In this document: one piece after another, positions 25,960-43,583 of the stretch | How positions within the stretch are numbered: position 1 is the stretch's first letter | How the letters are laid out: every line of letters begins with the position of its first letter | IMG/VR virus record: IMGVR_UViG_3300027749_000034 | Reading direction: 5' to 3' (one strand) | DNA length: 64,000 nucleotides | Source: a virus | Taxonomy: Duplodnaviria > Caudoviricetes | Notes under the pieces: model-generated | Told to the model about the DNA's origin: nothing | Seen by the model: the letters and a program-made list of their open reading frames with translations, nothing else | Database searches by the model: none | Position numbers and translations under genes: made by a program

Positions 25960-25982
25960 CTCTACGCATAGTGAGATTACAG

Positions 25983-26013: not shown

Positions 26014-26018
26014 ATTGT

Positions 26019-26094
26019 GCGGGCGTAGCTCAGTTGGTAGAGCATTACCTTGCCAAGGTAAATGTCGTCGGTTCGAACCCGATCGCCCGCTCCA
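26019..26094 (+). tRNA. tRNA-Gly(GCC)
   Basis: Cloverleaf, TTACC-TT GCC AA-GGTAA, CCA encoded. Confidence 0.97.
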
Positions 26095-26098
26095 GGCT

Positions 26099-26272
26099 TG
26101 TTGTAGAAATACAACAAAAATAAAGGCAGATAGTTGTTGACAGGAATGAGTAGATAGCATATACTAGTTGAATACTGTAGCAATACAGCAGAAACAGTTT
26201 GAAAAGTGTTGTAGAAATACAACAAAAGAAAGTTAGAAAACGGTTGACATTACGGCATTGTCCGTATATAAT
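26099..26272 (+). promoter_or_regulatory. tandem operator plus sigma70 promoters (rrn P1/P2-like)
   Basis: Operators 26099-116 and 26207-224; TTGACA-17-TATACT (26137-65) and TTGACA-17-TATAAT (26244-72). Confidence 0.85.
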
Positions 26273-26280
26273 AACCAAAC

Positions 26281-26315
26281 ACTACAGCGAAAGTTGTAGT
26301 GATTGTTCTTTAAAA
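26281..26315 (+). promoter_or_regulatory. boxB-like hairpin plus boxA antitermination site
   Basis: ACTACAGC-GAAA-GTTGTAGT then TGTTCTTTAAAA. Confidence 0.7.
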
Positions 26316-26331
26316 ATTTGGTGGCATTTGT

Positions 26332-26406
26332 GCTCGATTCGTCTATCGGTTAGGACATCTGGTTTTCATCCAGGCAAGAGCGGTTCGATTCCGCTATCGA
26401 GTACCA
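26332..26406 (+). tRNA. tRNA-Glu(TTC)
   Basis: Cloverleaf, loop TT TTC AT, CCA. Confidence 0.95.
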
Positions 26407-26615
26407 TATGCAAGAATACTAAGGTTACCTAGACCACTAGGCGACTGGGATGATGGCAGTGCCGACGGGTGCTGGTCAAGTCCAGGAGCATGAAACAGGC
26501 GCAAGCTGGATTTGCGGTGGACAATCTAGGAGTAATGACCGTGCAGGCCTATACGAGACGTTCGTATATGGTAGACATAGATGCACAATGGTTCCTTTAG
26601 TATTCTTACATATGG
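26404..26615 (+). ncRNA. unknown structured RNA enclosed by 21-bp stem
   Basis: 26404-24 pairs 26595-615 with one C/A mismatch; internal hairpins. Confidence 0.6.
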
Positions 26616-26619
26616 TATT

Positions 26620-26705
26620 GCGAGTATGGTGAAATCTGGTAGACACAAGAGACTTAAAATCTCTCGCCGCAAGGTGTCCCGGTTCGACTCCGGGTACTCG
26701 CACCA
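26620..26705 (+). tRNA. tRNA-Leu(TAA)
   Basis: Type II cloverleaf, loop CT TAA AA, CCA. Confidence 0.96.
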
Positions 26706-26779
26706 AAATTAAGGCAATTGGGTTGTCAACCTAATTGGAGGCTAAGGCGTTATTAGTATATGCACTCCAGGAGAACAGC

Positions 26780-26920
26780 ATGTCAAATGATATATTAGCC
26801 CAAGTAAGAGAGATGTTGGATCGTACAAGAGATCCTTTTGAGATCGCGCACAAGTTGCATATTGATCTTGAATTTGTACAACAAGCAATGTCAATTTTAC
26901 TGAACAAAGTGTTAGCCTAA
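26780..26920 (+). CDS. small hypothetical (HTH-like) protein
   Basis: AGGAG RBS; PFEIAHKLHIDLEFVQQAM. Confidence 0.65.
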   Translation: MSNDILAQVREMLDRTRDPFEIAHKLHIDLEFVQQAMSILLNKVLA

Positions 26921-26928
26921 ACAAATTT

Positions 26929-27003
26929 GGTCTGTTCGTATAGAGGTTATTACTGTGGATTGTCTATCCACTTACGGGGGTTCGATTCCCCCACAGACCG
27001 CCA
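26929..27003 (+). tRNA. tRNA-Asp(GTC)
   Basis: Cloverleaf, loop TT GTC TA (U37), CCA. Confidence 0.93.
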
Positions 27004-27009
27004 ATTTTT

Positions 27010-27085
27010 TCCGCCTTAGCTCAGTTGGTAGAGTAGATGACTGTTAATCATTTGGTCCCTGGTTCGAGCCCAGGAGGTGGAGCCA
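27010..27085 (+). tRNA. tRNA-Asn(GTT)
   Basis: Cloverleaf, loop CT GTT AA, CCA. Confidence 0.96.
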
Positions 27086-27122
27086 AGAAAACATCAGTTT
27101 CTTTCATTTTACAAAGGCAATT

Positions 27123-27347
27123 ATGACATACATCAGTCGAGGAGTTGACATTGATACAGATCAATGTGTACAAAATGTTGGAGGCAATCGATTCAACTTG
27201 GTTTTAATTGCCGCGGCAAGAGCCAGGGAAATTAGTCAAAACAATAGAGAAAGTGTTCGCACAGAACATCTCCATACACCAGTAACTGCATTACTTGAAG
27301 TCCAAGATGGTAAGTTGGGGTATGAAGGAATACGAAAAGTTCGTTAA
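27123..27347 (+). CDS. rpoZ: RNA polymerase omega subunit homologue
   Basis: VGGNRFNLVLIAAARAREI ... PVTALLEVQDGK matches omega signature NRFDLVLVAARRARQ...VIALREIEEG. Confidence 0.85.
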   Translation: MTYISRGVDIDTDQCVQNVGGNRFNLVLIAAARAREISQNNRESVRTEHLHTPVTALLEVQDGKLGYEGIRKVR

Positions 27348-27353
27348 GTATAT

Positions 27354-27429
27354 CGCGGGGTACGTCAGTGGTCAGACTGCTAGGCTCATAACCTAGAAGA
27401 CGGAGGTTCGAATCCTTCCCCCGCAACCA
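27354..27429 (+). tRNA. tRNA-fMet(CAT), initiator-like
   Basis: CGCGGGG 5' end with C1xA72 mismatch, loop CT CAT AA. Confidence 0.9.
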
Positions 27430-27430
27430 G

Positions 27431-27624
27431 ACGTTCCGAGTGTCTTCGGATAGTGTGACCCACACGATGAGAAGTAGTGTGACAACTACGGGTGGTAGTC
27501 TTTGAACCGAAAGGCCGCTGGCAATGCGATAACGGAACCTGTCGGGAAGTGGGTGGAAGCCGTGTGTGATGGTGTTGGGGGTTCCTGGCGCTTGATACGG
27601 TACAATTACCACCGGGGTTCGCAG
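27431..27624 (+). ncRNA. unknown pseudoknotted structured RNA
   Basis: GTTCCG/CGGAAC (27433/27533) crosses GGTGGTA/TACCACC (27491/27607); GNRA hairpins. Confidence 0.5.
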
Positions 27625-27696
27625 AGCATATTAAAACACACTCTAACCGCAAGGTGACAAGTGAGCTCATGTTCATGAAGTGTGTTTCAATATGTT
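27625..27696 (+). ncRNA. long-stem hairpin cassette
   Basis: 18-bp stem AGCATATTAAAACACACT/AGTGTGTTTCAATATGTT with one A/C mismatch. Confidence 0.55.
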
Positions 27697-27700
27697 TTTC

Positions 27701-27776
27701 GGGGGTGTAGCTCATTTGGGAGAGCGCCTGCTTTGCAAGCAGGATGTAGCAAGTTCGATCCTTGTCACCTCCACCA
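27701..27776 (+). tRNA. tRNA-Ala(TGC)
   Basis: GGGGGTG acceptor with G3.U70, loop TT TGC AA. Confidence 0.96.
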
Positions 27777-27796
27777 TTATTATAAAGGAAAGTCGT

Positions 27797-27964
27797 ATGC
27801 ACGAAGCTGGTAAGGGCGATAGCCCAAGACCCTACAGCGTTGATTCAAAAACTTACTCAGACAATTGGGACACAATTTTTGGTAAGAAAGACAACAACGA
27901 TAAAAAAGAAATTGTTGATTCTTTGGACAAAAAACCAACAGACAACAATCCTGCGGCTAAGTAA
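27797..27964 (+). CDS. small hypothetical protein
   Basis: AAGGA RBS; GKGDSPRP...NWDTIFGK motif. Confidence 0.7.
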   Translation: MHEAGKGDSPRPYSVDSKTYSDNWDTIFGKKDNNDKKEIVDSLDKKPTDNNPAAK

Positions 27965-27968
27965 GATT

Positions 27969-28409
27969 ATGTTGCACTTGATTCAAACACTGGGGGAAAA
28001 TATACTGGACTTGATCAGTCAAGACCCAGTACGCCCACATATTCCTGCAAATGATAGGATTGGCAACAACAAAGAAATTTTTGTACTCAAAAATGAAGAC
28101 GACTCAGTTCGTGCAATCACCTGCGTAAGTTATCAAAACAGTATTCCCAAGTCTGAACTGGATTTGTTTATTTCAGATGTAGAACCAGACACAGCAGTTT
28201 TTTATACAATTTGGAGTTACAAGCCCGGAGCAGGCCGTCAGTTGATTTTTGATGCAGTTGACTACATCAAAAAAAATAAACCAAGTATAACAAAGTTTGT
28301 TACACTAAGTCCTAAAACAGAAATGGCCAAGCGTTTTCATACCAAGAACGGTGCTATTATTTTTAGAGAAAACGAAGAGTCAACAAACTACGAATATTTG
28401 CATCCTTAA
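27969..28409 (+). CDS. hypothetical protein (possible GNAT-like fold)
   Basis: QDPVRPHIP, FYTIWSYKPGAGRQLI, TLSP..EMAKRFH; stop codon lies inside tRNA-Val. Confidence 0.7.
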   Translation: MLHLIQTLGENILDLISQDPVRPHIPANDRIGNNKEIFVLKNEDDSVRAITCVSYQNSIPKSELDLFISDVEPDTAVFYTIWSYKPGAGRQLIFDAVDYIKKNKPSITKFVTLSPKTEMAKRFHTKNGAIIFRENEESTNYEYLHP

Positions 28410-28475
28410 CTCAGTTGGTAGAGTTCCTCGCTTACACCGAGGCTGTCGGCGGTTCGAGCCCGTCAGGATGTACCA
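28400..28475 (+). tRNA. tRNA-Val(TAC)
   Basis: Cloverleaf, loop CT TAC AC, CCA. Confidence 0.95.
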
Positions 28476-28497
28476 AACAACATAAGTAAATTTCAAC

Positions 28498-28573
28498 GCC
28501 CTTGTAGCTCAGCTGGTAGAGCACCGCACTTGTAATGCGGGGGTCCCGTGTTCGATTCATGGCGGGGGCACCA
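28498..28573 (+). tRNA. tRNA-Thr(TGT)
   Basis: Cloverleaf, loop CT TGT AA, CCA. Confidence 0.95.
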
Positions 28574-28586
28574 TTTTTAATCACCC

Positions 28587-28835
28587 ATGTGGGAATACCT
28601 AGTAACCTTTTTTGCGATCTTTTTACTTGACATTGTTTACACCTACTACTTGCGGTGTGTGGCCAATGACAATGTGTTAGGTGCAAGTTTTTGGTCAATA
28701 GCCTGTTATATTCTAGGAAGTGTGGCAGTTATAAATTACACAACCAATCATTGGTTAATGATTCCAGCCGTGGCAGGTGCGTTTTGCGGCACCTGGGTTG
28801 GAATGAAAATTAAGAAGAAACAATTCGGAGTGTAG
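28587..28835 (+). CDS. small multi-pass membrane protein
   Basis: Three hydrophobic helices; stop codon lies inside tRNA-Pro. Confidence 0.7.
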   Translation: MWEYLVTFFAIFLLDIVYTYYLRCVANDNVLGASFWSIACYILGSVAVINYTTNHWLMIPAVAGAFCGTWVGMKIKKKQFGV

Positions 28836-28902
28836 CGCAGTCTGGTAGCGCACCTGGTTTGGGACCAGGGGGTCCAAGGTTCGAATCCTTGTACTCCGAC
28901 CA
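28826..28902 (+). tRNA. tRNA-Pro(TGG)
   Basis: CGGAGTG acceptor, loop TT TGG GA, CCA. Confidence 0.96.
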
Positions 28903-29103
28903 AGTACCCCGGGCACCTCTGCCCGTTATACAAGAGGGGGATATTAGCAAACCCATAGACGCTACGGTGCATTGGATCTACCGCAAGGCCCATTTACGGC
29001 GACTTGAGAAATCACAAAGGCAGGAACTGTACTGTCTAAATAGAAAAATAGTTGGACGGGGTAACCACCCAGTCTGGGGCTCTTGTGGTGAGAGTAGCCA
29101 GAC
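28903..29103 (+). ncRNA. unknown structured RNA
   Basis: Nested hairpins GTCTGG/CCAGAC, GTCTAA/TTGGAC, GGGT/ACCC, CC-GCAA-GG. Confidence 0.45.
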
Positions 29104-29233
29104 ACTTTATAAAAGCCGTTTGAGTAGCTACAATGGAACACCGAAATACTTCTCAATACTAGTCAGTAGAAGGACCGGCCATGAAGAGTAGGGCTACCGC
29201 GAATTCAAGCGTCACAGACGGCCTCTATAAAGT
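29104..29233 (+). ncRNA. long-stem-enclosed structured RNA
   Basis: 18-bp closing stem 29104-21/29216-33 with A/C mismatches, abutting tRNA-Gly. Confidence 0.5.
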
Positions 29234-29307
29234 GCGGGATTAGTTTAATGGTAAAACTACAGATTTCCAATCTGTTGTCGTCAGTTCGATTCTGACATTC
29301 CGCTCCA
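29234..29307 (+). tRNA. tRNA-Gly(TCC)
   Basis: Cloverleaf, loop TT TCC AA, U73-CCA. Confidence 0.95.
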
Positions 29308-29329
29308 GACTTTTAGCATAAATATTGGT

Positions 29330-30202
29330 ATGAACCCAGACTTTACTAATCTAGCCTATGCCAAAGTCAATTTGAACTTTGATGCTGAATTATTTGCCAC
29401 CGAATACGATCGGCACATATTGCCACATGGAATTTCCATTTGCAATAGTCTTGAAACTTTAAACACATCTGTTGCACTCAATGAGTATTGGGGCATGGTT
29501 CCTCCAGATGAATATACCAAAGCAGATGTGTGGCGACAACCAGGACCTGCTACTACATTAGAATATATAAAACAACAACGCCCACAGTGGAAAATGGTGC
29601 AGTTAATGGGATTAGATATCACAGAAATAACTGACCCATTACTGTTGCGATTTTCCAAGCAAGGGGGACCTAGTGTTCGAAACGAAACACTGGATCCAAA
29701 GTATAAATTTTCAATCAAACCTTATTTTGCTGATTTGCAAATATACAAATGGATCATTGAAAATATTCCGTTACAGGAAATTAGAAGTTTACATTGTGTT
29801 AGCATTGAAGCAGGCGGGCTGGCAACAATACATCGAGATGTAAAAGGTCTATATGCTGGTATCAACAACAGCAGTGGATCGGACAATCGCATCTATAAAA
29901 ATGGTTATGTAATTATCAATTTAAATATCAGTAGCGGAGGTGGTCCACTATGGTGGTGCCTGGACGGGCCAGGTGTATTAGATCCGCAAAAATCAGATGA
30001 TCAAGTTTATTTGACAAACGATTATTTTTTACATGCAGTTCCATTAATGACTAGTCGACGCCGCCAAATTAGAATCATGGGCAAGCCAAAACCAGAGTTA
30101 TGGAACATGTTTGAATCAACGGGCATGATTACACTTCCAGACGACTACCAGTACAACGGCGGATTTGGCATTGAGTTCTTACCAAAAAATGACAGCAAAT
30201 AA
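29330..30202 (+). CDS. 2OG-Fe(II) dioxygenase-like protein (paralogue A)
   Basis: IHRD ... LHAV ... RRQIRI; TAAATA at 29319. Confidence 0.6.
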   Translation: MNPDFTNLAYAKVNLNFDAELFATEYDRHILPHGISICNSLETLNTSVALNEYWGMVPPDEYTKADVWRQPGPATTLEYIKQQRPQWKMVQLMGLDITEITDPLLLRFSKQGGPSVRNETLDPKYKFSIKPYFADLQIYKWIIENIPLQEIRSLHCVSIEAGGLATIHRDVKGLYAGINNSSGSDNRIYKNGYVIINLNISSGGGPLWWCLDGPGVLDPQKSDDQVYLTNDYFLHAVPLMTSRRRQIRIMGKPKPELWNMFESTGMITLPDDYQYNGGFGIEFLPKNDSK

Positions 30203-31073
30203 ATTTTCAAACATTGCCTATGCAAAGGTAAACCTGGCGTATGATCGTGAACTTTTTATCAAAGAATATGATGAGATTATATTACCACACGGTCACCCAA
30301 TTTCAAACAATTTGAATGCGGTTGGTTCTACTGCACCATTGAATAAGGTATGGGGAATGATACCACCAGAATTATACAATAAAGGTGATATCTACATGCA
30401 AGAAGGAAATGCCAACGCAATGAAATACATTGTGCGAGAACATCCAGGTTGGTTAATGGTGCAATTAATGCAAGCTGATCTGACTCAGGTTCCTGAGTCT
30501 AAGAAAGAAATTCTTAAGAAATTTTCTTTTAGAGGTGGACCCAGTTTTAGAAATGAAACATTGGATCTTGATTTTTCAATTAAACAACCTTTTGAACACA
30601 TGCAAATATGGAAATGGATACAAAATAATTTACCATTTAAAAAAATTAACAGCATTCATTGTGTGAGTTTAGAGCCTGGCGGGTTTTCAATCATACATAG
30701 AGATATGAAAGGCTTGTATAATCCATTGTCTAGTGCAACAACCAACAGACTTTACAAAGAAGGGTTCGTAGTACTTGCGTTGAATTTGTCAGATGGTGGA
30801 TCTCCTTTATATTGGTCGCTGGACGGCGCAGATGCAGTCAATTGTTTTAAAGCCAATGATCCACTGTATCTTTCAAGTGATTACTTCATGCACGGAGTAG
30901 GAATAGTAACCAGTCGCCGACGACAAGTCCGTGTTGCTGGTATTCCAGGTCCTGAATTATGGGATCTATTAGACAAAGATTCTATCATTGACCTGGGTGA
31001 ACATTACAAATATGATTCTTCCTGGGCCAGAGATTATGCAGAAAAAGAATTACTAAATCGAGAATCTAAATGA
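30189..31073 (+). CDS. 2OG-Fe(II) dioxygenase-like protein (paralogue B, tandem duplicate)
   Basis: Aligns end to end with A (AYAKVNL, GGPSxRNETLD, IHRD, H, SRRRQ). Confidence 0.6.
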   Translation: MTANKFSNIAYAKVNLAYDRELFIKEYDEIILPHGHPISNNLNAVGSTAPLNKVWGMIPPELYNKGDIYMQEGNANAMKYIVREHPGWLMVQLMQADLTQVPESKKEILKKFSFRGGPSFRNETLDLDFSIKQPFEHMQIWKWIQNNLPFKKINSIHCVSLEPGGFSIIHRDMKGLYNPLSSATTNRLYKEGFVVLALNLSDGGSPLYWSLDGADAVNCFKANDPLYLSSDYFMHGVGIVTSRRRQVRVAGIPGPELWDLLDKDSIIDLGEHYKYDSSWARDYAEKELLNRESK

Positions 31074-32584
31074 ATGTTGTACTATTAAATTCTGGTCCAA
31101 GAATTAATGAATTTACAGTTTACAGAACACTGGGTCCTTACAAGCTGGCACATGCACTGAGAAAAATTGGCATTTCTACAGTGGTAATTGATCACGTCAG
31201 ATGGTTAGATGATAACACTTTAACACAACTGCTGGATAAGTTTGTAACAGATGATACACTTTGCATTGGTATCAGCACCACATTTATATACCAACAGTTT
31301 GATACACCAGTTTTTCCGCCGGGCCTGCAAACTGCAATTGAAAAACTTGCTCAAAAATTTCCCAGGGCAAAAATTGTGTTGGGAGGACCTTACACGCAAA
31401 GATTTAAAGTAGAAGTACACCCTTCGTTTACTAAAGAGATTGATGCAATATTTGAAGAGTACTCTGAAGATACATTTGTAGATTACATACGCTCAATAAA
31501 AGAATCTAATATCACACTAATGCCACCATTTACTCATGAATTATGGAATGGCAAAGGAGTATTGTGTTTTAAAAAGCCCAAGATAGAACGATTTAACATT
31601 GAAACAAGTGCATTCAGATTTGTCGACGATGATGTAATTATGCCCAATGAGACATTGCCATTGGAAGTCAGCCGCGGTTGTATTTTTAAATGCAAATTCT
31701 GCAATCATTTGTTGTTGGGCAGAGGCAAGCTGGATTATCTAAGAGATTTTGAATTACTAAAAGATGAGCTAATGCACAATTATGAAAAGTGGGGAATAAC
31801 AAACTATTATATCATTTGCGATACATTCAATGACACTGAATATAAAATGAAAGCCTGGTATGATATGGTAGCAAGCTTACCTTTTAAAATCAAGTATACT
31901 TCATATTTGCGAGCAGACTTGTTGGATAAATTTCCAGATGTACCTTACATGCTACAAGAATCTGGGTTGCTGGCTGGTTTTCATGGAATAGAAAGCCTGG
32001 GCGAACAGGCTTCAGGCATCATTGGCAAAGGTTGGAGTGGCAAAAGTGCAAGAGAATATATACCAAAATTGTACCATGATATCTGGAATAAAAAAGTAGC
32101 GCAGACGCTCAGTTTCATTGTTGGATTAACCGGCGACACAAGAGAATCTTTGCTGGACACAGCACACTGGTTTGTTGACAACGATCTTTATAACATAACC
32201 TGGTCGTCATTGGGTCTTAGTAATCTAGGGGCTGTGCCCGGTCGACACGCCAGCGAATTTGAAAAAAATGCAACCAAATATGGATATGAATTTGTTGAAT
32301 TTATAGCTGATAATCGAAGAAAGACCAAGGGGTATTATTGGAAGACTGATTATTGGACTCTGCGAGATGCTGACAAATATGTGCAAGAAGTATTACGACC
32401 GGTGACCAACAAATCAAATGCGCCACATGGCAGTTGGACACTTTTGCAGTTTATGCAATATCCTGGTGTGACCGAAGAAAATTTGACCAAAGAAAATTCT
32501 AAAAAAATTGTAGCTGACCTTGATCTACGCCTGCAACAAAAATTATGGATCAATGCGTATGTAGGAAAAATGCTTGCTCTTTAA
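31070..32584 (+). CDS. cobalamin-binding radical SAM protein
   Basis: N-terminal B12-binding-like domain (LGPYKLA...IGISTTF...VLGG), SRGCIFKCKFC. Confidence 0.85.
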   Translation: MNVVLLNSGPRINEFTVYRTLGPYKLAHALRKIGISTVVIDHVRWLDDNTLTQLLDKFVTDDTLCIGISTTFIYQQFDTPVFPPGLQTAIEKLAQKFPRAKIVLGGPYTQRFKVEVHPSFTKEIDAIFEEYSEDTFVDYIRSIKESNITLMPPFTHELWNGKGVLCFKKPKIERFNIETSAFRFVDDDVIMPNETLPLEVSRGCIFKCKFCNHLLLGRGKLDYLRDFELLKDELMHNYEKWGITNYYIICDTFNDTEYKMKAWYDMVASLPFKIKYTSYLRADLLDKFPDVPYMLQESGLLAGFHGIESLGEQASGIIGKGWSGKSAREYIPKLYHDIWNKKVAQTLSFIVGLTGDTRESLLDTAHWFVDNDLYNITWSSLGLSNLGAVPGRHASEFEKNATKYGYEFVEFIADNRRKTKGYYWKTDYWTLRDADKYVQEVLRPVTNKSNAPHGSWTLLQFMQYPGVTEENLTKENSKKIVADLDLRLQQKLWINAYVGKMLAL

Positions 32585-32608
32585 GCGCAAATCACATATA
32601 ATATACAC

Positions 32609-33127: not shown

Positions 33128-33306
33128 TGGATTGGTTACGCTATAGCGGCCTATGGATAACTGTAATTTTCAACCCATTCCATTGGCGCATTTCTTACTG
33201 CATTGATTCAACCCAGGCCGAATGGCCAAGCCCCAGTCGCCGAGAAATTGTAATACAGGTCATCATGCTGTCATTCAGGCTAGTTGTCGACAATGGTGAC
33301 TGGTAA
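33127..33306 (+). CDS. small hypothetical protein (not in ORF track)
   Basis: MDWLRYSGLWITVIFNPFHW..., TAATG overlap. Confidence 0.55.
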   Translation: MDWLRYSGLWITVIFNPFHWRISYCIDSTQAEWPSPSRREIVIQVIMLSFRLVVDNGDW

Positions 33307-33314
33307 GTATCGTT

Positions 33315-36107: not shown

Positions 36108-36170
36108 CCCATTGACAATCTGTGGCGATTGCTGTATAATAGCAGTAATCGCTTTTCTTTTGGAGAAATT

Positions 36171-36581: not shown

Positions 36582-36646
36582 CTGCGGTCCAAAATAAATA
36601 GTCCATACAACTTAGAGTTGAATTTAAGTTAACATGGGTTATTTCA

Positions 36647-37696
36647 ATGACAATCAGATCGTCAGGCGCACTGCCTGCCAGTGAAATCAATGCCGAACTC
36701 GGGCTCGCTTCAACCGCACAAATTGGCATTGGTGGAGCAGTACCTAGAGGCCTAGCTGGCGTTGCGTCAGGTGCTATTGCATTCAGCAACTTTTATGGCA
36801 AGGCCAATCTGACACCGGGCAATGGCGGTCTATTCACAACATCAACCACATTTACAGTACCCAGCTCATCTGGCGGAACACTCAAAATATTAAGCATTGG
36901 TGGTGGTGGTGGCGGTGGCGGTGGAACAAATCGTTGTGCTGTTTATCTGTATGTGGGTGGCGGAGGAGGTGGCTCCGGAGAAATCACATTAAAAACAGTG
37001 ACCGTGACACCTGGTACAGTTTTGACAATCACAGTTGGTGCCGCAGGTTCAGCTGGCGGACAGCGTGATGGACAATATGGCGGCGGTGCCGCAGGTGGCA
37101 CAGGCGGTACTACCACTGTCAAAAACGGTGCCACTATTTTGACCGGTGCAGGTGGCGGAGGAGGTGGCGCACTTTCTCAACAGCCGTCGTCGTCACCTAT
37201 TCTTGACAACTATAGTGCTCACTTTAACCAAAGCGTTATCAATACAGCGGCCAGCACAATTTTAGCGGCCGGAGGCGCAGGTGGTTCAGGTGGCGGAGGT
37301 GGTTCAGGCTACACAAATCCGTTTGCCAGCGTGGCCGGCAATGGCACTTCTTATGCAGGTACCACCTACATGGGCGGCGGCGATGGCGGCCGTGGCTACA
37401 CCATCGATACCACCAGTGGCGTGGCTACACCATACGGCACAGGTTCTGCAGGTCGTGGCGGACGAGGAAATGTTGGCCCACAAATCCAGCTGGACAAGGG
37501 TTACTATTATTTCACGCCACAAAATAGCTGTAAAGGCGGTTCGCCTGCCGCAGGAAACTACATTGCTCAAGCAGGAAGCACCTATGGAGGTGGTGGTGGT
37601 GGTGGTGGTATGGACAACGAATATTGCGGTACCACTGGTAAAGCCACTGGTGTTGCTGGATCGGGCGGCGCTGTATTCATCTGGTGGGGTTATTGA
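36647..37696 (+). CDS. glycine-rich tail-fibre/adhesin-like protein
   Basis: SSG..xS.INAELG...FSNFYGK N-terminal module, polyglycine tracts, C-terminal G.GAVFIWW. Confidence 0.7.
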   Translation: MTIRSSGALPASEINAELGLASTAQIGIGGAVPRGLAGVASGAIAFSNFYGKANLTPGNGGLFTTSTTFTVPSSSGGTLKILSIGGGGGGGGGTNRCAVYLYVGGGGGGSGEITLKTVTVTPGTVLTITVGAAGSAGGQRDGQYGGGAAGGTGGTTTVKNGATILTGAGGGGGGALSQQPSSSPILDNYSAHFNQSVINTAASTILAAGGAGGSGGGGGSGYTNPFASVAGNGTSYAGTTYMGGGDGGRGYTIDTTSGVATPYGTGSAGRGGRGNVGPQIQLDKGYYYFTPQNSCKGGSPAAGNYIAQAGSTYGGGGGGGGMDNEYCGTTGKATGVAGSGGAVFIWWGY

Positions 37697-37697
37697 C

Positions 37698-38090
37698 ATG
37701 AGCGCACCAGCTATCACAATTGGATGTGTGTCCAATCTCTACAGCAGACAAATGCACTTTGTCAATGCAGGCGATGTTGAACTGGGTCATACTCACTTGT
37801 ATGATCATTTCACATTGTTGGCCGCTGGTAGTCTTAGAGTCACTGTAGATGGTGCTGATAATGTGTTTACTGCACCACATATGATTTTCATTAAAAAAGA
37901 CAAAAATCATAGATTAGAAGCACTGGAGAACAACACAGTGGCCTACTGTATACATGCTCTTAGAAACAATGACGGATCAGGTGATATAATGGATCCCAAC
38001 ATGATACCCATGATACCACCTGATGGTGGTACCTATCAACCAGGCTCCGAAGGCCTAGTGACTCCGAGTTTACCCGATTGGATGAAATAA
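37698..38090 (+). CDS. cupin-fold protein
   Basis: GHTHLYDH...F.APHMIFI...H cupin metal motifs. Confidence 0.7.
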   Translation: MSAPAITIGCVSNLYSRQMHFVNAGDVELGHTHLYDHFTLLAAGSLRVTVDGADNVFTAPHMIFIKKDKNHRLEALENNTVAYCIHALRNNDGSGDIMDPNMIPMIPPDGGTYQPGSEGLVTPSLPDWMK

Positions 38091-38093
38091 CAA

Positions 38094-38153
38094 ATGGCAC
38101 TACAATCATCCGGAGCCATGAATGCCAGTGATATCAATGCCGAACTCACATAA
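38094..38153 (+). pseudogene. truncated copy of the Gly-rich adhesin N-terminus
   Basis: MALQSSGAMNASDINAELT* aligns with MTIRSSGALPASEINAELG. Confidence 0.65.
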
Positions 38154-38203
38154 TGTTGTAAAAATACAACACCGGTTGACAAACTGATTTTTTGTGCTAT
38201 AAT
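38154..38203 (+). promoter_or_regulatory. operator plus sigma70 promoter
   Basis: TGTTGTAAAAATACAACA then TTGACA-16-TATAAT. Confidence 0.8.
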
Positions 38204-38223
38204 AGTCTTTTAGAAGGATTTAT

Positions 38224-38445
38224 ATGACCAACAAACAACGAGCTGTATTTGAAACTGTCAAGATGGTTGTAATTTTTATTGTAATGGGTCTGACATTCAG
38301 TACCATCATACAAACTGGCTATGGCGTATACTTGGGTATTGCCATGGTTGCACTTGGCGTGGTGTATGCATTGATCATGATGTATGAAATGAAGCTGGGC
38401 CAAATTGAATCAAAACAAAGACTAGACGAACTATCAAAAAATTAA
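38224..38445 (+). CDS. small two-TM membrane protein
   Basis: Two hydrophobic helices, AAGGA RBS. Confidence 0.7.
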   Translation: MTNKQRAVFETVKMVVIFIVMGLTFSTIIQTGYGVYLGIAMVALGVVYALIMMYEMKLGQIESKQRLDELSKN

Positions 38446-38472
38446 TAATTTTAGCCTTAACGCAACAAGAGG

Positions 38473-38501
38473 TTGACAACAAGGCTAAGTAAGTGTACAA
38501 T
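38473..38501 (+). promoter_or_regulatory. sigma70 promoter of leader/attenuator 2
   Basis: TTGACA-17-TACAAT. Confidence 0.8.
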
Positions 38502-38508
38502 GATTACT

Positions 38509-38628
38509 ATGACGAACACATTCATATCAAGACTATCGCAGTGGTGCTCAAAACAGAGCATGAGCTTCTGTGACTCCTTTAGTATGAGCTATCATGTTCG
38601 CCATATTCTAGGAGCTCATCCAGGATAA
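38509..38628 (+). CDS. putative leaderless Ser-rich leader peptide (39 aa)
   Basis: MTNTFISRLSQWCSKQSMSFCDSFSMSYHVRHILGAHPG*; starts at predicted TSS. Confidence 0.55.
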   Translation: MTNTFISRLSQWCSKQSMSFCDSFSMSYHVRHILGAHPG

Positions 38629-38649
38629 AGTAATCAGACCGTTTACTTG

Positions 38650-38678
38650 AACCCTGGACTAACACTCCGGGGTTTTTT
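38650..38678 (+). terminator. attenuator-type intrinsic terminator 2
   Basis: AACCCTGGA-7nt-TCCGGGGTT-TTTT; stem identical to terminator 1. Confidence 0.85.
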
Positions 38679-38697
38679 CTTTTTGTGATAAGGAACA

Positions 38698-38853
38698 ATG
38701 ACATTAGATAAAAAGATCAAAGAAGCAGAGTGGACACGCACTCATACATTGAGCAAAGAGCAGTTACAAAAATTGCTCCGTGACAAGATGAAGAGAGCGC
38801 AACACATGCATCAGTTAAACAAGCGAGAGATGTTGACTCAGAGACATCGTTGA
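38698..38853 (+). CDS. small basic hypothetical protein (not in ORF track)
   Basis: TAAGGA RBS; MTLDKKIKEAEWTRTH... Confidence 0.6.
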   Translation: MTLDKKIKEAEWTRTHTLSKEQLQKLLRDKMKRAQHMHQLNKREMLTQRHR

Positions 38854-38864
38854 TCGCCAAGTGG

Positions 38865-38894
38865 TTGACAGGAAACGAGGTCCTGTGCTACACT
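38865..38894 (+). promoter_or_regulatory. sigma70 promoter
   Basis: TTGACA-18-(TG)TACACT. Confidence 0.6.
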
Positions 38895-38955
38895 ATAAAC
38901 AAGCACAAACGGGCGGTACTAGGGATGAAGCACCTTGTGTGGTGTGAAAAATCTA

Positions 38956-39051
38956 GTATATTAAAGCATATACTTGCCTGACTGCAAACGTCGTGGTAAA
39001 CTACTAGAGAAAGGGGTTCAAATCCCCGGGACTGGTATGTGCTTTAATATA
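38956..39051 (+). ncRNA. tRNA-like RNA in an 18-bp closing stem
   Basis: GTATATTAAAGCATATAC/GTATGTGCTTTAATATAC; inner T-arm GGGG-TTCAAAT-CCCC; TGGTAA D-loop-like segment. Confidence 0.6.
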
Positions 39052-39098
39052 CACATTGAGCTGGCCAGGACTGTAATGTCGCAGACAGTGTGTTTAAC

Positions 39099-39183
39099 GG
39101 AGAAGAAGCATCAATGGTGATGCAGTGGACTGTAAATCCGCCGCCTTCGGGCACGACTGGTTCGATCCCAGTATTCTCCACCA
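39099..39183 (+). tRNA. tRNA-Tyr(GTA)
   Basis: Type II cloverleaf, loop CT GTA AA. Confidence 0.95.
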
Positions 39184-39188
39184 ATTTA

Positions 39189-39280
39189 GGAAGTGTGGCC
39201 GAGTCCGGTTTATGGCACTAGTCTTGAAAACTAGCGGAGGGTTAAACCTCCCGTGAGTTCGAATCTCACCGCTTCCGCCA
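39189..39280 (+). tRNA. tRNA-Ser(TGA)
   Basis: Type II cloverleaf, loop CT TGA AA, G73. Confidence 0.96.
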
Positions 39281-39287
39281 TGTCAAT

Positions 39288-39362
39288 GGGCCAGTAGCTT
39301 AATGGTAAAGCAACCGACTCATAATCGGTCGAGTCTTGGTTCAATTCCAAGCTGGCCCACCA
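39288..39362 (+). tRNA. tRNA-Ile2(CAT) (lysidine type) or Met
   Basis: GGGCCAG acceptor resembling Ile2, loop CT CAT AA. Confidence 0.85.
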
Positions 39363-39368
39363 GTTTAT

Positions 39369-39443
39369 GCCCTGTTAGTTCAACGGATAGAATTAGAGTC
39401 TTCGAAACTCAGGATGGTGGTTCGATTCCATCACAGGGCGCCA
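39369..39443 (+). tRNA. tRNA-Arg(TCG)
   Basis: Cloverleaf, loop CT TCG AA. Confidence 0.9.
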
Positions 39444-39446
39444 AGT

Positions 39447-39646
39447 TTTGTTAGAGTGTCAGCAAGAGAAAGACTCGCTAGAAGGCTTCTTCGAAGGGCC
39501 GACTAATGTTAAAGAAGGACGGGTTCAAGTCCCGTAAACGCAGTGGAGCACCTTTGTCCTGTATCCCAAGTGACTTACCGAATCCCGCTCGAGCTTGTTA
39601 ATTCGGGTGAATGGTGCTTATAATGTGGTAGCACTACTTTAACAAA
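39447..39646 (+). ncRNA. long-stem-enclosed structured RNA with T-arm
   Basis: TTTGTTAGAGT/ACTTTAACAAA closing stem; ACGGG-TTCAAGT-CCCGT at 39519-35. Confidence 0.55.
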
Positions 39647-39654
39647 TTCAACAT

Positions 39655-39732
39655 GTACAGATGCCCGAGAGGCCCAAGGGAACTGATTGCAAACCAGTAA
39701 AGCCGTCGGTTCAAATCCGACTCTGTACTCCA
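39655..39732 (+). tRNA. tRNA-Cys(GCA)
   Basis: GTACAGA/TCTGTAC, loop TT GCA AA, U73. Confidence 0.92.
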
Positions 39733-39733
39733 A

Positions 39734-39808
39734 GGTAATGTAGCATAATGGTAGTGCGCCTGCTTCATACGCAGTCCAGTGCTAGTTCGACTCTAGCCAT
39801 TACCACCA
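39734..39808 (+). tRNA. tRNA-Met(CAT), elongator-like
   Basis: GGTAATG acceptor, loop TT CAT AC. Confidence 0.88.
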
Positions 39809-39828
39809 ATTTTATAGGAGAGCCTGTT

Positions 39829-39966
39829 ATGGCCAGTGTCAAGAAAGGAACGATGACTCGTTCACCACAGTGGTGGAAACACCTTAAAGAATGGAAGCGT
39901 GTGTTCTGGAAAGCAGAACGACAAGCTCACAAAAAAGCGGGTATAGCTCAGTTGGTAGAGCAGTAG
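39829..39966 (+). CDS. small Trp/Lys-rich protein
   Basis: AGGAG RBS; PQWWKHLKEWKRVFWK; last 10 codons overlap tRNA-Lys. Confidence 0.6.
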   Translation: MASVKKGTMTRSPQWWKHLKEWKRVFWKAERQAHKKAGIAQLVEQ

Positions 39967-40012
39967 ACTTTTAATCTATTGGTCGTGGGTTCGAATCCCT
40001 CTGCCCGCACCA
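39937..40012 (+). tRNA. tRNA-Lys(TTT)
   Basis: Cloverleaf, loop CT TTT AA, CCA. Confidence 0.96.
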
Positions 40013-40025
40013 ATAAATAGTTGTA

Positions 40026-40370
40026 ATGAAAATTCAGCAAGACAGCACCGGACTTTATATTGAAACAGATGAAGTAGTCTGTCGTCCAGTTGAATCAAGT
40101 CAATTCAAATCAGATGAAGAGGTTCGGCTGGCACTTGATGCTGAAATAGCCACGGTCAGTGATGCCAATGATCGCGGTGCAAATGCCTTTGAAGAACAGT
40201 GGCAAGCAGTATACAAATCTCAGCCGGCTAGAGTTACGTCAGCGCCGGTAACTCATCCACCCATGTATTATGTAGAACACACAGGTTGGTATACTGCAAT
40301 CATAATCCTACTGGGCGTCACTGGGTTTGACCTTGGTCTTCTTGTTGGCACCATCTGGGCCAGGCTTTAA
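40026..40370 (+). CDS. hypothetical protein with C-terminal TM helix
   Basis: 114-aa ORF; TAAATA at 40014. Confidence 0.65.
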   Translation: MKIQQDSTGLYIETDEVVCRPVESSQFKSDEEVRLALDAEIATVSDANDRGANAFEEQWQAVYKSQPARVTSAPVTHPPMYYVEHTGWYTAIIILLGVTGFDLGLLVGTIWARL

Positions 40371-40478
40371 TTCCAACGGTTGAAACTGCAACTTGGCTTT
40401 GGCCAGAAGAGCATCTGGTTTAAAGTCTGCAGGTAAACACCAGGTGGCGCTGGGCAACAATTTAGATTTAACACTCAT
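40308..40478 (-). CDS. possible small protein (56 aa)
   Basis: MSVKSKLLPSATWCLP...; TAAATA 4 nt upstream; overlaps the + strand ORF end. Confidence 0.3.
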   Translation of the reverse strand: MSVKSKLLPSATWCLPADFKPDALLAKAKLQFQPLELKPGPDGANKKTKVKPSDAQ

Positions 40479-40501
40479 ACAGTATTTAAGATCATTTAGG
40501 T

Positions 40502-40574
40502 GTGACCTTAGTGTTAGCGGTCAGCACCTCGGATTGTGATTCCGATAGGATGGGTTCAAATCCCATAGGTCACC
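40502..40574 (+). tRNA. tRNA-His(GTG) lacking encoded G-1 and CCA
   Basis: GTGACCT/AGGTCAC, loop TT GTG AT, C73; T at -1; flanks extend the stem. Confidence 0.9.
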
Positions 40575-40591
40575 CCTAAACGATCTTTATT

Positions 40592-40667
40592 GCCAAGATA
40601 GCTCATCTGGTAGAGCACCTGTTTGAAGCACAGGGTGTGGTTGGTTCGAGTCCAACTCTTGGTACCA
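40592..40667 (+). tRNA. tRNA-Phe(GAA)
   Basis: Cloverleaf, loop TT GAA GC (G37). Confidence 0.93.
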
Positions 40668-40676
40668 AGTTTCTGT

Positions 40677-40750
40677 TCGGGAATGGTGTAATGGTAACAC
40701 AACACACTTTGACTGTGTCGTTCTAGGTTCGAGTCCTAGTTCCCGTGCCA
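40677..40750 (+). tRNA. tRNA-Gln(TTG)
   Basis: Cloverleaf, loop CT TTG AC, G73. Confidence 0.93.
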
Positions 40751-40769
40751 AATTTATAAGTAAGTTTAT

Positions 40770-40846
40770 AGCCTCATAGCTCAGTTGGTTAGAGCATTGT
40801 CTTGATAAGGCAAGGGTCCCCTGTTCGAGTCAGGGTGAGGCTACCA
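40770..40846 (+). tRNA. tRNA-Ile(GAT)
   Basis: Cloverleaf, loop TT GAT AA. Confidence 0.95.
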
Positions 40847-40853
40847 GGATATT

Positions 40854-40994
40854 ATGAAAAAATTATTGTCAATCTGCGTACTTGCAACAGTTGCCGCATG
40901 CGGTTCAATGCCCAAGACTTGCTCTGTGCCTGGTGAGCAAGGTTGTACAAAGATACCGGCAATAATGATTCCAATTTTCAGCAAACAGTTTTAA
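40854..40994 (+). CDS. small lipoprotein (not in ORF track)
   Basis: MKKLLSICVLATVAA-C lipobox. Confidence 0.65.
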   Translation: MKKLLSICVLATVAACGSMPKTCSVPGEQGCTKIPAIMIPIFSKQF

Positions 40995-41068
40995 GGGTCA
41001 TTAGTATAATGGCAGTACTGCGGTCTCCAAAACCGTTAGTGGGAGTTCGAGTCTCTCATGGCCCGCCA
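40995..41068 (+). tRNA. tRNA-Trp(CCA)
   Basis: Cloverleaf, loop CT CCA AA, G73. Confidence 0.94.
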
Positions 41069-41089
41069 ATTACACCTAATAGGTAAATC

Positions 41090-42061
41090 ATGTCAGTTAT
41101 TTTATTTTCGCATCCACGCAGTGGAAGCAGTCACTATACCGCAATGTTGCATTGGCATAATCAGCACAAGTATAAAAACCAAAGCATATACCTTTTTGAA
41201 TTTTTTACAATACATTGCACAGATACATTTGGGCAAGCCGGCGATATACTTTACAACCTTGAGTTATATGGTAAACCTATTCAAGTCTGTGAGTTAGTTG
41301 ATGCAGTATGGAATCGTCAGTGGTTGTATTGGCAAATTGAATCCAATCAGGACCCTGCTGACTTGTTGCCAATGATGCTAAAAAACAAAACTGTAATTTT
41401 TAAAAATTTTCAAGAAGTCCAGCAGTGGTATACAGCAGAATGTTTAAAGAGGTTGAGCTGGCTTAAATTTTTAACCAACAGCAAAATTCATTATGTTGTG
41501 AAACATTTTTTTCTCAGCCAAGAACTCAACATTGATGCTGAGCTGATAGAGTTTGCCAAGTCAGCTCAGCAGGCCAAACTGTATTATAGGCAGGACTTTT
41601 ATCAAACTTTATTGAGTCATCTTATTAAGACTTGTTATTATGATATACCTGGTGCACAACAGAGTCTAACAAATCGTGGACAGGATGCACACAATATACA
41701 AAATAAAATGTCTCCACTACAACCAATGTCATTGTCATTGGAAAAAGATCAACTGTTGAAGTGGATTGATCCTTTTGTATTATTTTTAAATTTTGTCAAA
41801 AACAACAAATTTGATGCGGTAGACATATTGTTGTATGAAGACTTTTTAGCAAAAAAATCAATTCAAATTGACGGGCAAGAAATAAAGTTAGAAATAATTG
41901 ATGCTAAATTCATGCGGACCAAAGAGTTTCCAATGAATTATGCTGTGAGTAAAGATCAATATTTTATCAACAGTGAATTGATTAAGAGCGTGGTCTATGA
42001 AAAAATTGTTGACCAGCACCTGCTAGAAACAATGCAAATGCTAGGTATTCGATTGTTGTAA
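41090..42061 (+). CDS. sulfotransferase-like P-loop protein
   Basis: N-terminal HPRSGSS (5'-PSB loop), LFEFF, LLYEDF. Confidence 0.55.
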   Translation: MSVILFSHPRSGSSHYTAMLHWHNQHKYKNQSIYLFEFFTIHCTDTFGQAGDILYNLELYGKPIQVCELVDAVWNRQWLYWQIESNQDPADLLPMMLKNKTVIFKNFQEVQQWYTAECLKRLSWLKFLTNSKIHYVVKHFFLSQELNIDAELIEFAKSAQQAKLYYRQDFYQTLLSHLIKTCYYDIPGAQQSLTNRGQDAHNIQNKMSPLQPMSLSLEKDQLLKWIDPFVLFLNFVKNNKFDAVDILLYEDFLAKKSIQIDGQEIKLEIIDAKFMRTKEFPMNYAVSKDQYFINSELIKSVVYEKIVDQHLLETMQMLGIRLL

Positions 42062-42075
42062 TTGATCAAACACAT

Positions 42076-42150
42076 ACCACTATAGTTCAATGGATAGAAT
42101 CGGGTCCTCCTAAGACTTGGATACAGGTTCGATTCCTGTTGGTGGGACCA
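42076..42150 (+). tRNA. tRNA-Arg(CCT)
   Basis: Cloverleaf, loop CT CCT AA. Confidence 0.92.
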
Positions 42151-42158
42151 AAGTCAAT

Positions 42159-42235
42159 ACCCCGGTGGCGCAATTGGTAGACGCACCTCTCTCAAAAGGA
42201 GGGTGTTGAGAGTTCGAATCTCTCCCGGGGTACCA
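42159..42235 (+). tRNA. tRNA-Leu(CAA) with short variable loop
   Basis: Loop CT CAA AA; only 5-nt variable region GTGTT; 77 nt. Confidence 0.9.
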
Positions 42236-42245
42236 TTATAGTTTG

Positions 42246-42839
42246 TTATATAAAAATCTTAGATGCCAATAATTCATACGGCATCAGTTTATTTGTTGCG
42301 TCAGTCACTGTGAAAGAGACTGTGTATCGAGTTTCTTCCGTGGTTGTTACATTGTGTGGAATTCCAGTTTGTACAATGTTGTATCCAACAAGATGTTTGC
42401 TGTACAGCAAATTTACCTGATCTGCCGTAAAGCTTGCATAATTGTTTGAATAGTTATTTTTACGAGATATCTTTGTTACTTTTGGTGTGTACCAATTAAG
42501 CACTCCGCCACTGGAGTTGGAAATGTAATTGATCTTGGCCATATTTCCTGGCATCATGTAATCTGCATCAGCGCCATCGGTATGAATCATTGAGGTAAAA
42601 TTAGTTGGGTAGTAAAAAAGCTCGCAACCACGAACCAGCAAGCCCCTTCCTGCCAAGAAGCTGATCACATTGTGGTCAATGTACTTGGAAACTGTAGAAT
42701 CTTTTGAATTAAAAATAGTAGACCTATTGTAAACACCTTTGGCACTAATTAATTTCAACAGGCGTAATCCAGATACAGATAACGGACCATAAGATAAGCT
42801 GAAGTTTTTATACAATTCCATGCGATATTTATTCAACAA
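42246..42839 (-). CDS. 2OG-Fe(II) dioxygenase-like protein
   Basis: IHTDG ... IPHNV ... RYTVSF; start may be the internal ATG (MELY). Confidence 0.58.
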   Translation of the reverse strand: MLNKYRMELYKNFSLSYGPLSVSGLRLLKLISAKGVYNRSTIFNSKDSTVSKYIDHNVISFLAGRGLLVRGCELFYYPTNFTSMIHTDGADADYMMPGNMAKINYISNSSGGVLNWYTPKVTKISRKNNYSNNYASFTADQVNLLYSKHLVGYNIVQTGIPHNVTTTEETRYTVSFTVTDATNKLMPYELLASKIFI

Positions 42840-42892
42840 GTCATTGACAACAGTAGGTTAAATAGTTTATAATAAATTTTACAGAGTAAATT

Positions 42893-42982
42893 GGAGCGGT
42901 CCTATAATGGTATTAGAGCAGATTGCTAATCTGTCGCTCGGCGTAATCCGGGTTCTGAGTTCGAGTCTCAGTCGCTCCGCCA
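42893..42982 (+). tRNA. tRNA-Ser(GCT)
   Basis: Type II cloverleaf, loop TT GCT AA; promoter TTGACA-18-TATAAT at 42844-73. Confidence 0.93.
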
Positions 42983-43001
42983 AACACAACGAAAGCACAG
43001 T

Positions 43002-43166
43002 ATGAAGCCAGGTAAAACATTTCGATTAAGCAAAACAACCAAGCGAATGCTATGTAGCATTGTTGATACAACCAAGCGTAATGCTTGGAAGGCCGCAATG
43101 ATTCAAGCAGAGTTGGCCGCAGGTGTAGTTGTCAAGAGAGAGCCAAAAGAAGGACAGCGTAAGTAA
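43002..43166 (+). CDS. small basic protein (not in ORF track)
   Basis: MKPGKTFRLSKTTKRML...KAAMIQAEL. Confidence 0.65.
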   Translation: MKPGKTFRLSKTTKRMLCSIVDTTKRNAWKAAMIQAELAAGVVVKREPKEGQRK

Positions 43167-43175
43167 AGTTTTTTT

Positions 43176-43259
43176 GCCCCGGTGGTGTAATGGTAGCCAC
43201 GCTGGTCTTAGAAGCCAGTGCCGAAAGGCGTGTCGGTTCGAGTCCGACCTGGGGCACCA
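43176..43259 (+). tRNA. tRNA-Leu(TAG)
   Basis: Type II cloverleaf, loop CT TAG AA. Confidence 0.95.
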
Positions 43260-43276
43260 TAATTTAAAGGTCAAAT

Positions 43277-43498
43277 ATGCCAACAGTCTATACTGAAGTC
43301 GAAGTCGATGTAAGTCTAAGTGATTTTGATACCGAAGATCTAATTGAAGAATTAGAATCTCGAGGTAACTTGCCAATTGAGGGCAATACCGACGCTAAAG
43401 AGCTAGTCGAGTCAATGTATCTAAAGCGTAGAAATGGCAAAGACTACCAGCAAGAGTTGGACCAACTGATTTATCGAGTCCTTGGTAAGATCGTTTAA
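43277..43498 (+). CDS. hypothetical protein
   Basis: 73-aa acidic ORF. Confidence 0.7.
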   Translation: MPTVYTEVEVDVSLSDFDTEDLIEELESRGNLPIEGNTDAKELVESMYLKRRNGKDYQQELDQLIYRVLGKIV

Positions 43499-43508
43499 AT
43501 TGCATCAT

Positions 43509-43583
43509 CTGGCCATAGTACAATGGATAGTACATAGAGCTTCTACCTCTAGAATGTGGGTTCGATTCCTGCTGGCCGGGCCA
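43509..43583 (+). tRNA. tRNA-Arg(TCT)
   Basis: Cloverleaf, loop CT TCT AC. Confidence 0.93.

Follow-up and report, generated by a model that had tools for sequence, protein, structure and literature searches.

A 64,000-nucleotide stretch from the genome of an uncultured lake phage (IMG/VR record IMGVR_UViG_3300027749_000034; hereafter the window) encodes 28 tRNAs in two blocks, A and B, about 9.8 kb apart. Why phages carry tRNAs has been debated for 50 years (PMC10264068), and an earlier note on this stretch proposed that the set can replace the whole host tRNA pool rather than just tune codon bias. The question raised by the locus is how the supply of such a set is controlled, and what that control says about its use. 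We find that each block stands behind a promoter, a short open reading frame (ORF) whose frame is under selection, and an intrinsic terminator; that the codons of each leader ORF match the tRNAs behind it; and that each terminator has a predicted antiterminator, specific to its own partner in nearly all clusters of related leaders. On the strength of these sequence features, we consider it probable that both units are ribosome-mediated attenuators, which would top up the tRNA pool on shortage. The new element is this proposed codon-checklist attenuator before each tRNA block; the complete tRNA set by itself exemplifies well something already known.

The same layout of promoter, short ORF and terminator with the stem CCCTGGA/TCCGGGG occurs twice, once per block (Table 1), and both terminators start about 23 nt past the leader stop. 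The -10 box ends very close before the ATG, and among the 59 related units that have a promoter, 53 show a distance of 5-10 nt; the transcripts are therefore probably leaderless, with translation of the short ORF beginning at their 5' end. Insertions and deletions within the leader ORFs are all multiples of three, and the spacers carry indels of 1 and 2 nt. A 42-codon version of leader B was dropped, as its first ATG overlaps the -10 box. Metatranscriptome contigs cover leader B; those of two runs bridge terminator B, and those of one run end at 38677. Such contigs show neither transcript ends nor levels, and they cover coding stretches as well. The relatives compared here are uncultured contigs, designated by G or L numbers. 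Their 64 leaders come from related genomes and were located by terminator or tRNA patterns, so that counts overstate independence.

The codons of each leader are largely those read by its own block. In leader A this holds for 18 of 20 codons, compared with a background of 52.6% (P=4.5e-4), and none of the 10 elongator tRNAs of block A lacks a codon in it; only 1.4% of same-length windows of real genes do as well. In leader B, 29 of 38 codons (28 of 30 in its core) belong to the block behind it, compared with a background of 50% (P=8e-4). This leader covers 15 of the 17 block-B tRNAs, matched by 0.04% of windows as computed on the 42-codon frame; the two tRNAs left without a codon are Arg-CCT and Leu-CAA, both of them extras beyond a minimal set (see below). 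Cross-tabulating leader against block gives 17:2 versus 9:29 (Fisher P=2.6e-6), and the same partition recurs in related genomes with P between 1e-7 and 3e-6, these genomes being related rather than independent.

The match extends to synonymous codons and follows tRNA genes that differ in position. For leucine, leader A uses TTA/TTG, with Leu-TAA in block A, and leader B uses CTA, with Leu-TAG in block B. Wherever Leu-TAG belongs to block B, leader A has TTA/TTG only; in G003 Leu-TAG is a block-A gene, and there CTA occurs twice in leader A and Leu is absent from leader B. Similarly, codons for Glu, Asn, Pro, Thr and Asp occur in the leader-B core of L131, whose block B holds the matching tRNAs. 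A leader standing alone before a whole array tends to include all amino acids, judging by the related sequences; all 20 are present in 17 of the 64 leaders versus 1.1 expected, and in 11 of 25 clusters at 50% identity. In L261, three leader-terminator units (3871, 6169 and 7535) split 24 tRNAs for 20 amino acids. Tandem runs of a sensed codon were not encountered: each tRNA is represented by one or few scattered codons.

The end of each leader is predicted to form an antiterminator with the terminator arm. The antiterminators of the window are equalled by 0.1% of shuffled leader ends. Over 64 units the antiterminator duplex averages -12.5 kcal/mol, compared with -7.6 for shuffled leaders and -5.8 for a control of 59 same-type terminators that follow ordinary genes. 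When partners are swapped between leaders, the native pairing proves stronger in 24 of 25 sequence clusters. We rely on these energies and swaps instead of on arm-pairing probability, which separated poorly from shuffles (0.80 vs 0.63). Covariation of antiterminator pairs is found in family A only, where two-sided changes exchange A-U and G-C pairs in the outer helix and turn A-U into G-C within the stop codon itself (TAA to TGA). A candidate protector hairpin over the 5' strand of antiterminator A is conserved in the same family (-7.7 kcal/mol in the window, -10.9 to -15.8 in three relatives); it is a candidate for the pause hairpin that keeps polymerase and ribosome in step in such attenuators. 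In predicted folds, a ribosome with its A site past about codon 14 of leader A or 34 of leader B releases the terminator arm by masking, and a stall at codons 2-13 of leader A or 2-33 of leader B would leave the antiterminator free.

Table 1. Features of the window that bear on the tRNA blocks and their expression; folds and promoters are predictions
Feature	Position	Strand	Remarks
Permuted (two-piece) tmRNA, betaproteobacterial type	15161..15550	+	RF01850, 136 bits; 10.5 kb upstream of block A
Promoter A, sigma70-type	25859..25887	+	10/12; -10 box ends 6 nt before leader ATG; conserved in 6 aligned loci
Leader ORF A	25894..25959	+	21 codons, MLNVKLLPGNTGPATEDTPRP; 18/20 codons read by block-A tRNAs
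Candidate protector hairpin (segments 1:2)	25933..25954	+	overlaps 5' strand of antiterminator A; predicted
Antiterminator A	25947..25990	+	about -18.5 kcal/mol; last leader codons and stop pair with spacer and terminator 5' arm
Terminator A, intrinsic, U tract	25981..26015	+	-16.1 kcal/mol; 3 nt before tRNA-Gly
tRNA block A, 11 genes	26019..29307	+	Gly-GCC, Glu-TTC, Leu-TAA, Asp, Asn, fMet, Ala-TGC, Val-TAC, Thr-TGT, Pro-TGG, Gly-TCC
Two strong internal promoters	26137-26165, 26244-26272	+	11/12 and 12/12; each after a GTTGTA-N4-TACAAC palindrome
RNA polymerase omega-subunit homologue	27123-27347	+	inside block A; PF01192, E 1e-9
Promoter B, sigma70-type	38473..38501	+	11/12; -10 box ends 7 nt before leader ATG; nearly invariant in 7 loci
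Leader ORF B	38509..38628	+	39 codons, MTNTFISRLSQWCSKQSMSFCDSFSMSYHVRHILGAHPG; 29/38 codons (28/30 in core) read by block-B tRNAs
Antiterminator B	38619..38658	+	-13.0 kcal/mol; last-codon TCCAGG paired with terminator-arm CCTGGA; inner hairpin enclosed
Terminator B, intrinsic, U tract	38649..38684	+	-14.4 kcal/mol
Internal promoter-like site, extended -10	38865..38894	+	10/12; before tRNA-Tyr; similar in L179, L180, L094
tRNA block B, 17 genes	39099..43583	+	Tyr, Ser-TGA, Ile2(CAT), Arg-TCG, Cys, Met, Lys-TTT, His, Phe, Gln-TTG, Ile-GAT, Trp, Arg-CCT, Leu-CAA, Ser-GCT, Leu-TAG, Arg-TCT
Strong internal promoter	42844..42873	+	12/12; before last three tRNAs

Several observations weigh against the attenuator reading. 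The simple duplex test, taken by itself, is not significant for the two window units (0.25 and 0.17), antiterminator B is invariant and hence shows no covariation, and the loci were sampled via terminator-like patterns, which makes for a biased sample. Leader A contains Lys and Arg codons and the leader-B core Asp and Val codons; leader B has no AGG or TTG codon. A ribosome with a 12-nt footprint stalled at the Glu and Asp codons 16 and 17 of leader A would itself mask the antiterminator, and thus the tRNAs for Glu16 and Asp17 may escape sensing. The terminator wins at equilibrium at every ribosome position (0.86-1.00), so that control must be kinetic, through a pause or a kinetic trap. Finally, strong promoter-like sites lie 3' of both window terminators and inside 29 of 34 related arrays, in 10 of them before the first tRNA. 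Because strong internal promoters follow both terminators, part of the tRNA output probably escapes the switch: the promoters at 26137 and 26244 bypass attenuator A for 10 of the 11 block-A tRNAs, and the site before tRNA-Tyr is a possible bypass of attenuator B.

The palindrome that precedes the two block-A promoters has six exact copies in the window (16026, 26100, 26208, 38155, 61209 and 63985), with none in 100 shuffles, and variants at 60610 and 60644. For the five exact copies that allow a reading, it stands 2-21 nt upstream of a -35 box, and it is absent from both leader promoters. It is probably bound by a phage protein that regulates early promoters.

The attenuator reading can be spelled out as follows. 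The phage would hold a complete back-up tRNA pool in two operons, each with a ribosome-coupled attenuator checking the supply of the tRNAs behind it. Host sigma70 polymerase would start at the leader AUG, a start site deduced from the observed promoter spacing, and a ribosome would then read the checklist, with one or few codons per downstream tRNA, as the codon match and the frame-preserving indels indicate. On reaching the last codons it would mask the 5' strand of the antiterminator, whereupon the terminator would fold and the transcript stop, according to the predicted folding and by analogy with trp and his. If a tRNA were missing, or if initiation failed, the ribosome would lag, the antiterminator would form first, and the block would be transcribed; this stall-dependent and kinetic read-through we infer by analogy with the trp, his and ilv attenuators. 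The internal promoters would provide a basal supply, with the attenuators serving as a feedback top-up and not as the sole on/off gate.

The weakest step is the trigger. Cleavage or decay of host tRNA seems likely, because making tRNA cures only a tRNA shortage; and since each tRNA is listed by single codons, unlike the runs of hisL and trpL, the response would be mainly to severe loss of one tRNA. Phage tRNAs that defeat tRNA-cutting defences have been published (PMC11555353, PMC10264068). Going further, checklist attenuators might serve large phages as sensors of host defences that destroy tRNA, such that the cutting of any host tRNA would stall the leader ribosome and induce the replacement operon, a feedback counter-defence with the sensor co-evolving with operon content; we put this forward tentatively, as an idea that could well be right but that we are slightly disinclined to bet on. 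A leader that lists the tRNAs behind it would be the phage's own record of what gets monitored. If induction is indeed triggered by shortage and specific to the block, replacement after tRNA loss would be favoured over codon tuning, and attenuation would extend from amino-acid operons to tRNA genes, with one sensor for up to 20 amino acids.

Leader-peptide attenuators are well known from amino-acid operons, e.g. trpL, hisL, pheL and leuL, the multivalent thrL and ilvGMEDA leaders, and the pheST leader. Like these (for pheL, see PMC3082878), the phage units combine a short leader ORF, alternative antiterminator and terminator hairpins, a U-tract terminator and codons matched to the operon. Unlike them, the phage operon makes tRNAs and not enzymes; 10-20 amino acids are sampled by one or few codons each, not by runs; no Shine-Dalgarno sequence precedes the leader, whose start codon is at the 5' end or close to it; and the 5' strand of the antiterminator consists of the last codons plus the stop. 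The leaderless polycysteine short ORFs of mycobacteria are likewise codon-based sensors for a downstream operon, although they concern one amino acid and protein-coding targets and are bacterial (bioRxiv 10.1101/834739). Our literature search, which left subscription journals mostly outside, turned up no publication that describes attenuation for tRNA genes of phages.

One cultured phage, the Caulobacter phage phiCbK (NC_019405, approximately 51341-51500), carries what appears from its sequence to be a similar unit: a 32-codon ORF (about 51341-51439) directly follows a promoter-like site and is separated by 31 nt from a terminator that begins at 51471. In the middle of this leader, 16 of 19 codons are for Phe, Val, Ile, Gln, Arg or Gly, and tRNAs for those amino acids lie downstream. 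The antiterminator is not clear in one fold. Other tRNA blocks of this phage are immediately preceded by annotated terminators in two further cases. Since phiCbK is cultured, its unit is open to testing.

We must also consider what else could produce these patterns. The tRNAs might be a constitutive replacement pool, made from strong early promoters whatever the supply, with leaders that matter little. The complete non-redundant sets in six arrays and the internal promoters that score 12/12 would fit, as would the T5-like phages, which evade tRNA-cutting defences via strong promoters (PMC11555353); before the tRNAs of T5 itself our scan found no promoter-proximal short-leader unit. We nonetheless regard a purely constitutive pool as improbable, for it leaves unexplained the codon-matched leaders that track tRNA moves, the triplet-only indels and the partner-specific antiterminators; for the basal share, it can hold together with the attenuator reading.

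Alternatively, the same switch might have another job, the leader reporting ribosome speed, charging, or transcription-translation coupling (in starvation, slow growth or a stage of infection) and not the loss of a specific tRNA. Attenuators cannot separate uncharged from missing tRNA; leaders with all 20 amino acids, in relatives with a single operon, would react to any slowdown, and untranslated leaders likewise favour the antiterminator. Such a general sensor would have no need of codons specific to a block, yet the division between the leaders follows the blocks even in the choice of synonymous Leu codons, and we give this alternative as small a chance as constitutive expression. Control of read-through by the peptide itself (an arrest peptide) or by a phage protein (antitermination at a shared terminator), with a secondary role for the codon match, is very unlikely: the same terminator stem does end ordinary genes in these phages, and some leader residues recur, e.g. 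Trp and Cys, but the leaders form 25 clusters below 50% identity with no apparent common motif, the control terminators lack antiterminators, and synonymous codon choice tracks tRNA position. Codon-bias tuning alone, the classical hypothesis (PMC10264068), is hardly credible for a set whose one tRNA per box, kept through reshuffling, targets no particular codons, and which reads 15% of the phage codons only via four-way wobble.

The tRNA set itself is largely as the earlier note described it. ARAGORN finds 27 tRNAs at 26019-43583, all on the + strand, and the 28th, Tyr-GTA at 39099-39183, is recovered by Rfam (RF00005, 35.3 bits, cut-off 29) and by ARAGORN at a relaxed threshold. The count of 28, the coverage of all 20 amino acids and the absence of repeated anticodons, other than three CAT genes, are thus confirmed. 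An E-value Rfam scan of positions 14000-50000 gave no further tRNAs, and relaxed ARAGORN with introns gave only noise besides Tyr. Established rules tell fMet, Ile2 and elongator CAT tRNAs apart, and the note's assignment of one gene to each agrees with gene-specific features: the tRNA at 27354 has a C1:A72 mismatch, as in fMet; that at 39288 has C4:G69, C5:G68 and C29:G41, as in Ile2/TilS substrates; and that at 39734 is elongator-like. In G003 the Ile2 classification failed, which affects 1 ATA codon. ARAGORN also calls amber-reading tRNAs (CTA anticodon) in the relatives L124, L126, L127 (237-312), L175 and L261; none is present in the window.

A U34 tRNA serves each of the 8 family boxes (8/8, Arg as UCG), as the note had it. 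With four-way U34 reading in the Ser, Leu, Pro, Arg, Thr, Val and Ala boxes, 61 of 61 sense codons are readable; without it 14 are unread, amounting to 15.4% of 12,472 phage codons. The set was called minimal and complete; it is complete but not minimal, since 25 genes suffice (8 for family boxes and 17 for split boxes and CAT), with Gly-GCC, Arg-CCT and Leu-CAA as the extras. Two of the note's supporting arguments are weak. As for the mycoplasma-type superwobble, only Arg-UCG clearly needs an unmodified U: in Gram-negative bacteria a single tRNA-Val(UAC) with cmo5U34 reads all four codons (PMC11571807), and Gly is outside the need because it has its own GCC tRNA. The Arg-UCG tRNA has C32, which favours unmodified-U superwobble (PMC10853795). 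As for the choice of Arg-UCG instead of ACG, which depends on TadA, related arrays also use ACG; in those with at least 10 tRNAs, 21 have UCG only, 13 ACG only and 6 both.

Because five related arrays are complete despite different gene order (G001 with 29 tRNAs, G003 with 27, L001 with 30, L011 with 26 and L158 with 27, with no codon unread), completeness looks selected. Complete sets that persist through shuffling support a stand-in for the host pool; codon tuning would not need that. The claimed capacity to replace the host pool thus stands, although not its novelty, replacement after host tRNA loss being an already published hypothesis (PMC10264068, PMC11555353). The set would still depend on the host for synthetases, for RNase P and for tRNA modification (TilS for Ile2, U34 enzymes); in a scan of about 50 window ORFs, which is not every ORF, we found no synthetase, CCA-adding enzyme, TilS or TadA. 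In G001, a close relative, the 29 tRNAs lie within 3.1-18.8 kb of a 91.6-kb contig, with none beyond.

Other large sets can be set beside this one. In T5 (NC_005859) the annotation lists 25 tRNAs, which together serve all 20 amino acids; like the window set, they include three CAT genes and family-box tRNAs with U34, here for seven boxes. T5 lacks Leu-UUR and Arg-CGN readers, so that its set is incomplete, it uses plain strong promoters, and no leader-terminator unit appeared in our scan. Its tRNAs counter tRNA-cutting defences (PMC11555353). Mycobacteriophages of cluster C1 carry 33 tRNAs on average, read as a reply to host anticodon nucleases (PMC10264068); compared by description, they belong to another host and phage group, with no attenuation described. 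Mycoplasma and organelle four-way sets have one U34 tRNA per family box, with 28 tRNA types in M. mycoides (PMC11571807, PMC10853795). Unlike these, the phage has two Gly tRNAs, its host probably modifies U34 (to cmo5U), and a host set is present at infection.

Some of the tRNAs are unusual. CCA is encoded by 27 of the 28 genes, His (40502) ending in CCC; among related His genes CCA is absent in 6 of 34. The tRNA-Asp (26929) has U37, and 18 of 49 related Asp genes share TA at 37-38; Leu-CAA (42159) has a short variable arm, as do 13 of 14 related genes; and Leu-TAG (43176) has A37. These odd features of Asp, His, Leu-CAA and Leu-TAG possibly reflect evasion of anticodon nucleases. Two ORFs, ending at 28407-28409 and 28833-28835, have stop codons that form positions 8-10 of tRNA-Val and tRNA-Pro, so that tRNA maturation would leave non-stop mRNAs. 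Five ORF-poor spacers lie between tRNAs on the + strand (26407-26619, 27430-27700, 28903-29233, 38895-39098 and 39444-39654), with folding z-scores of -3.2, -3.0, -1.5, -3.3 and -0.8, respectively; three of them recur in 16-27 loci. No Rfam family matches the leaders or spacer RNAs. By analogy with T5, where stable RNAs of unknown function lie between tRNAs, the spacers are candidate stable RNAs.

The phage is large and T4-like: the window encodes a DnaB-type helicase and a class Ia ribonucleotide reductase, and nearly all genes lie on one strand. The best matches of the reductase, at 69% identity, are enzymes of Pelagibacter and Synechococcus myoviruses; no closer cultured relative was found, the DNA matches being single tRNAs. 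Sequencing runs with parts of the window DNA are from freshwater. The two-piece tmRNA, of a kind already known from aquatic phages (PMC9004378), has the tag ANDSQFALAA and its own promoter (11/12), and a tmRNA is also present in the relative G002. Because the tmRNA is of betaproteobacterial type and the promoters of sigma70 type, the evidence suggests a betaproteobacterial host. Among the other genes, a D-Ala-D-Ala carboxypeptidase (43482-44432) has a start that overlaps tRNA-Arg-TCT, and there are a beta-lactamase-fold protein (48863-50020), a TonB C-terminal domain protein (62357-62950) and a ClpP (54850-55440), which may form a tagging-and-proteolysis pair with the tmRNA.

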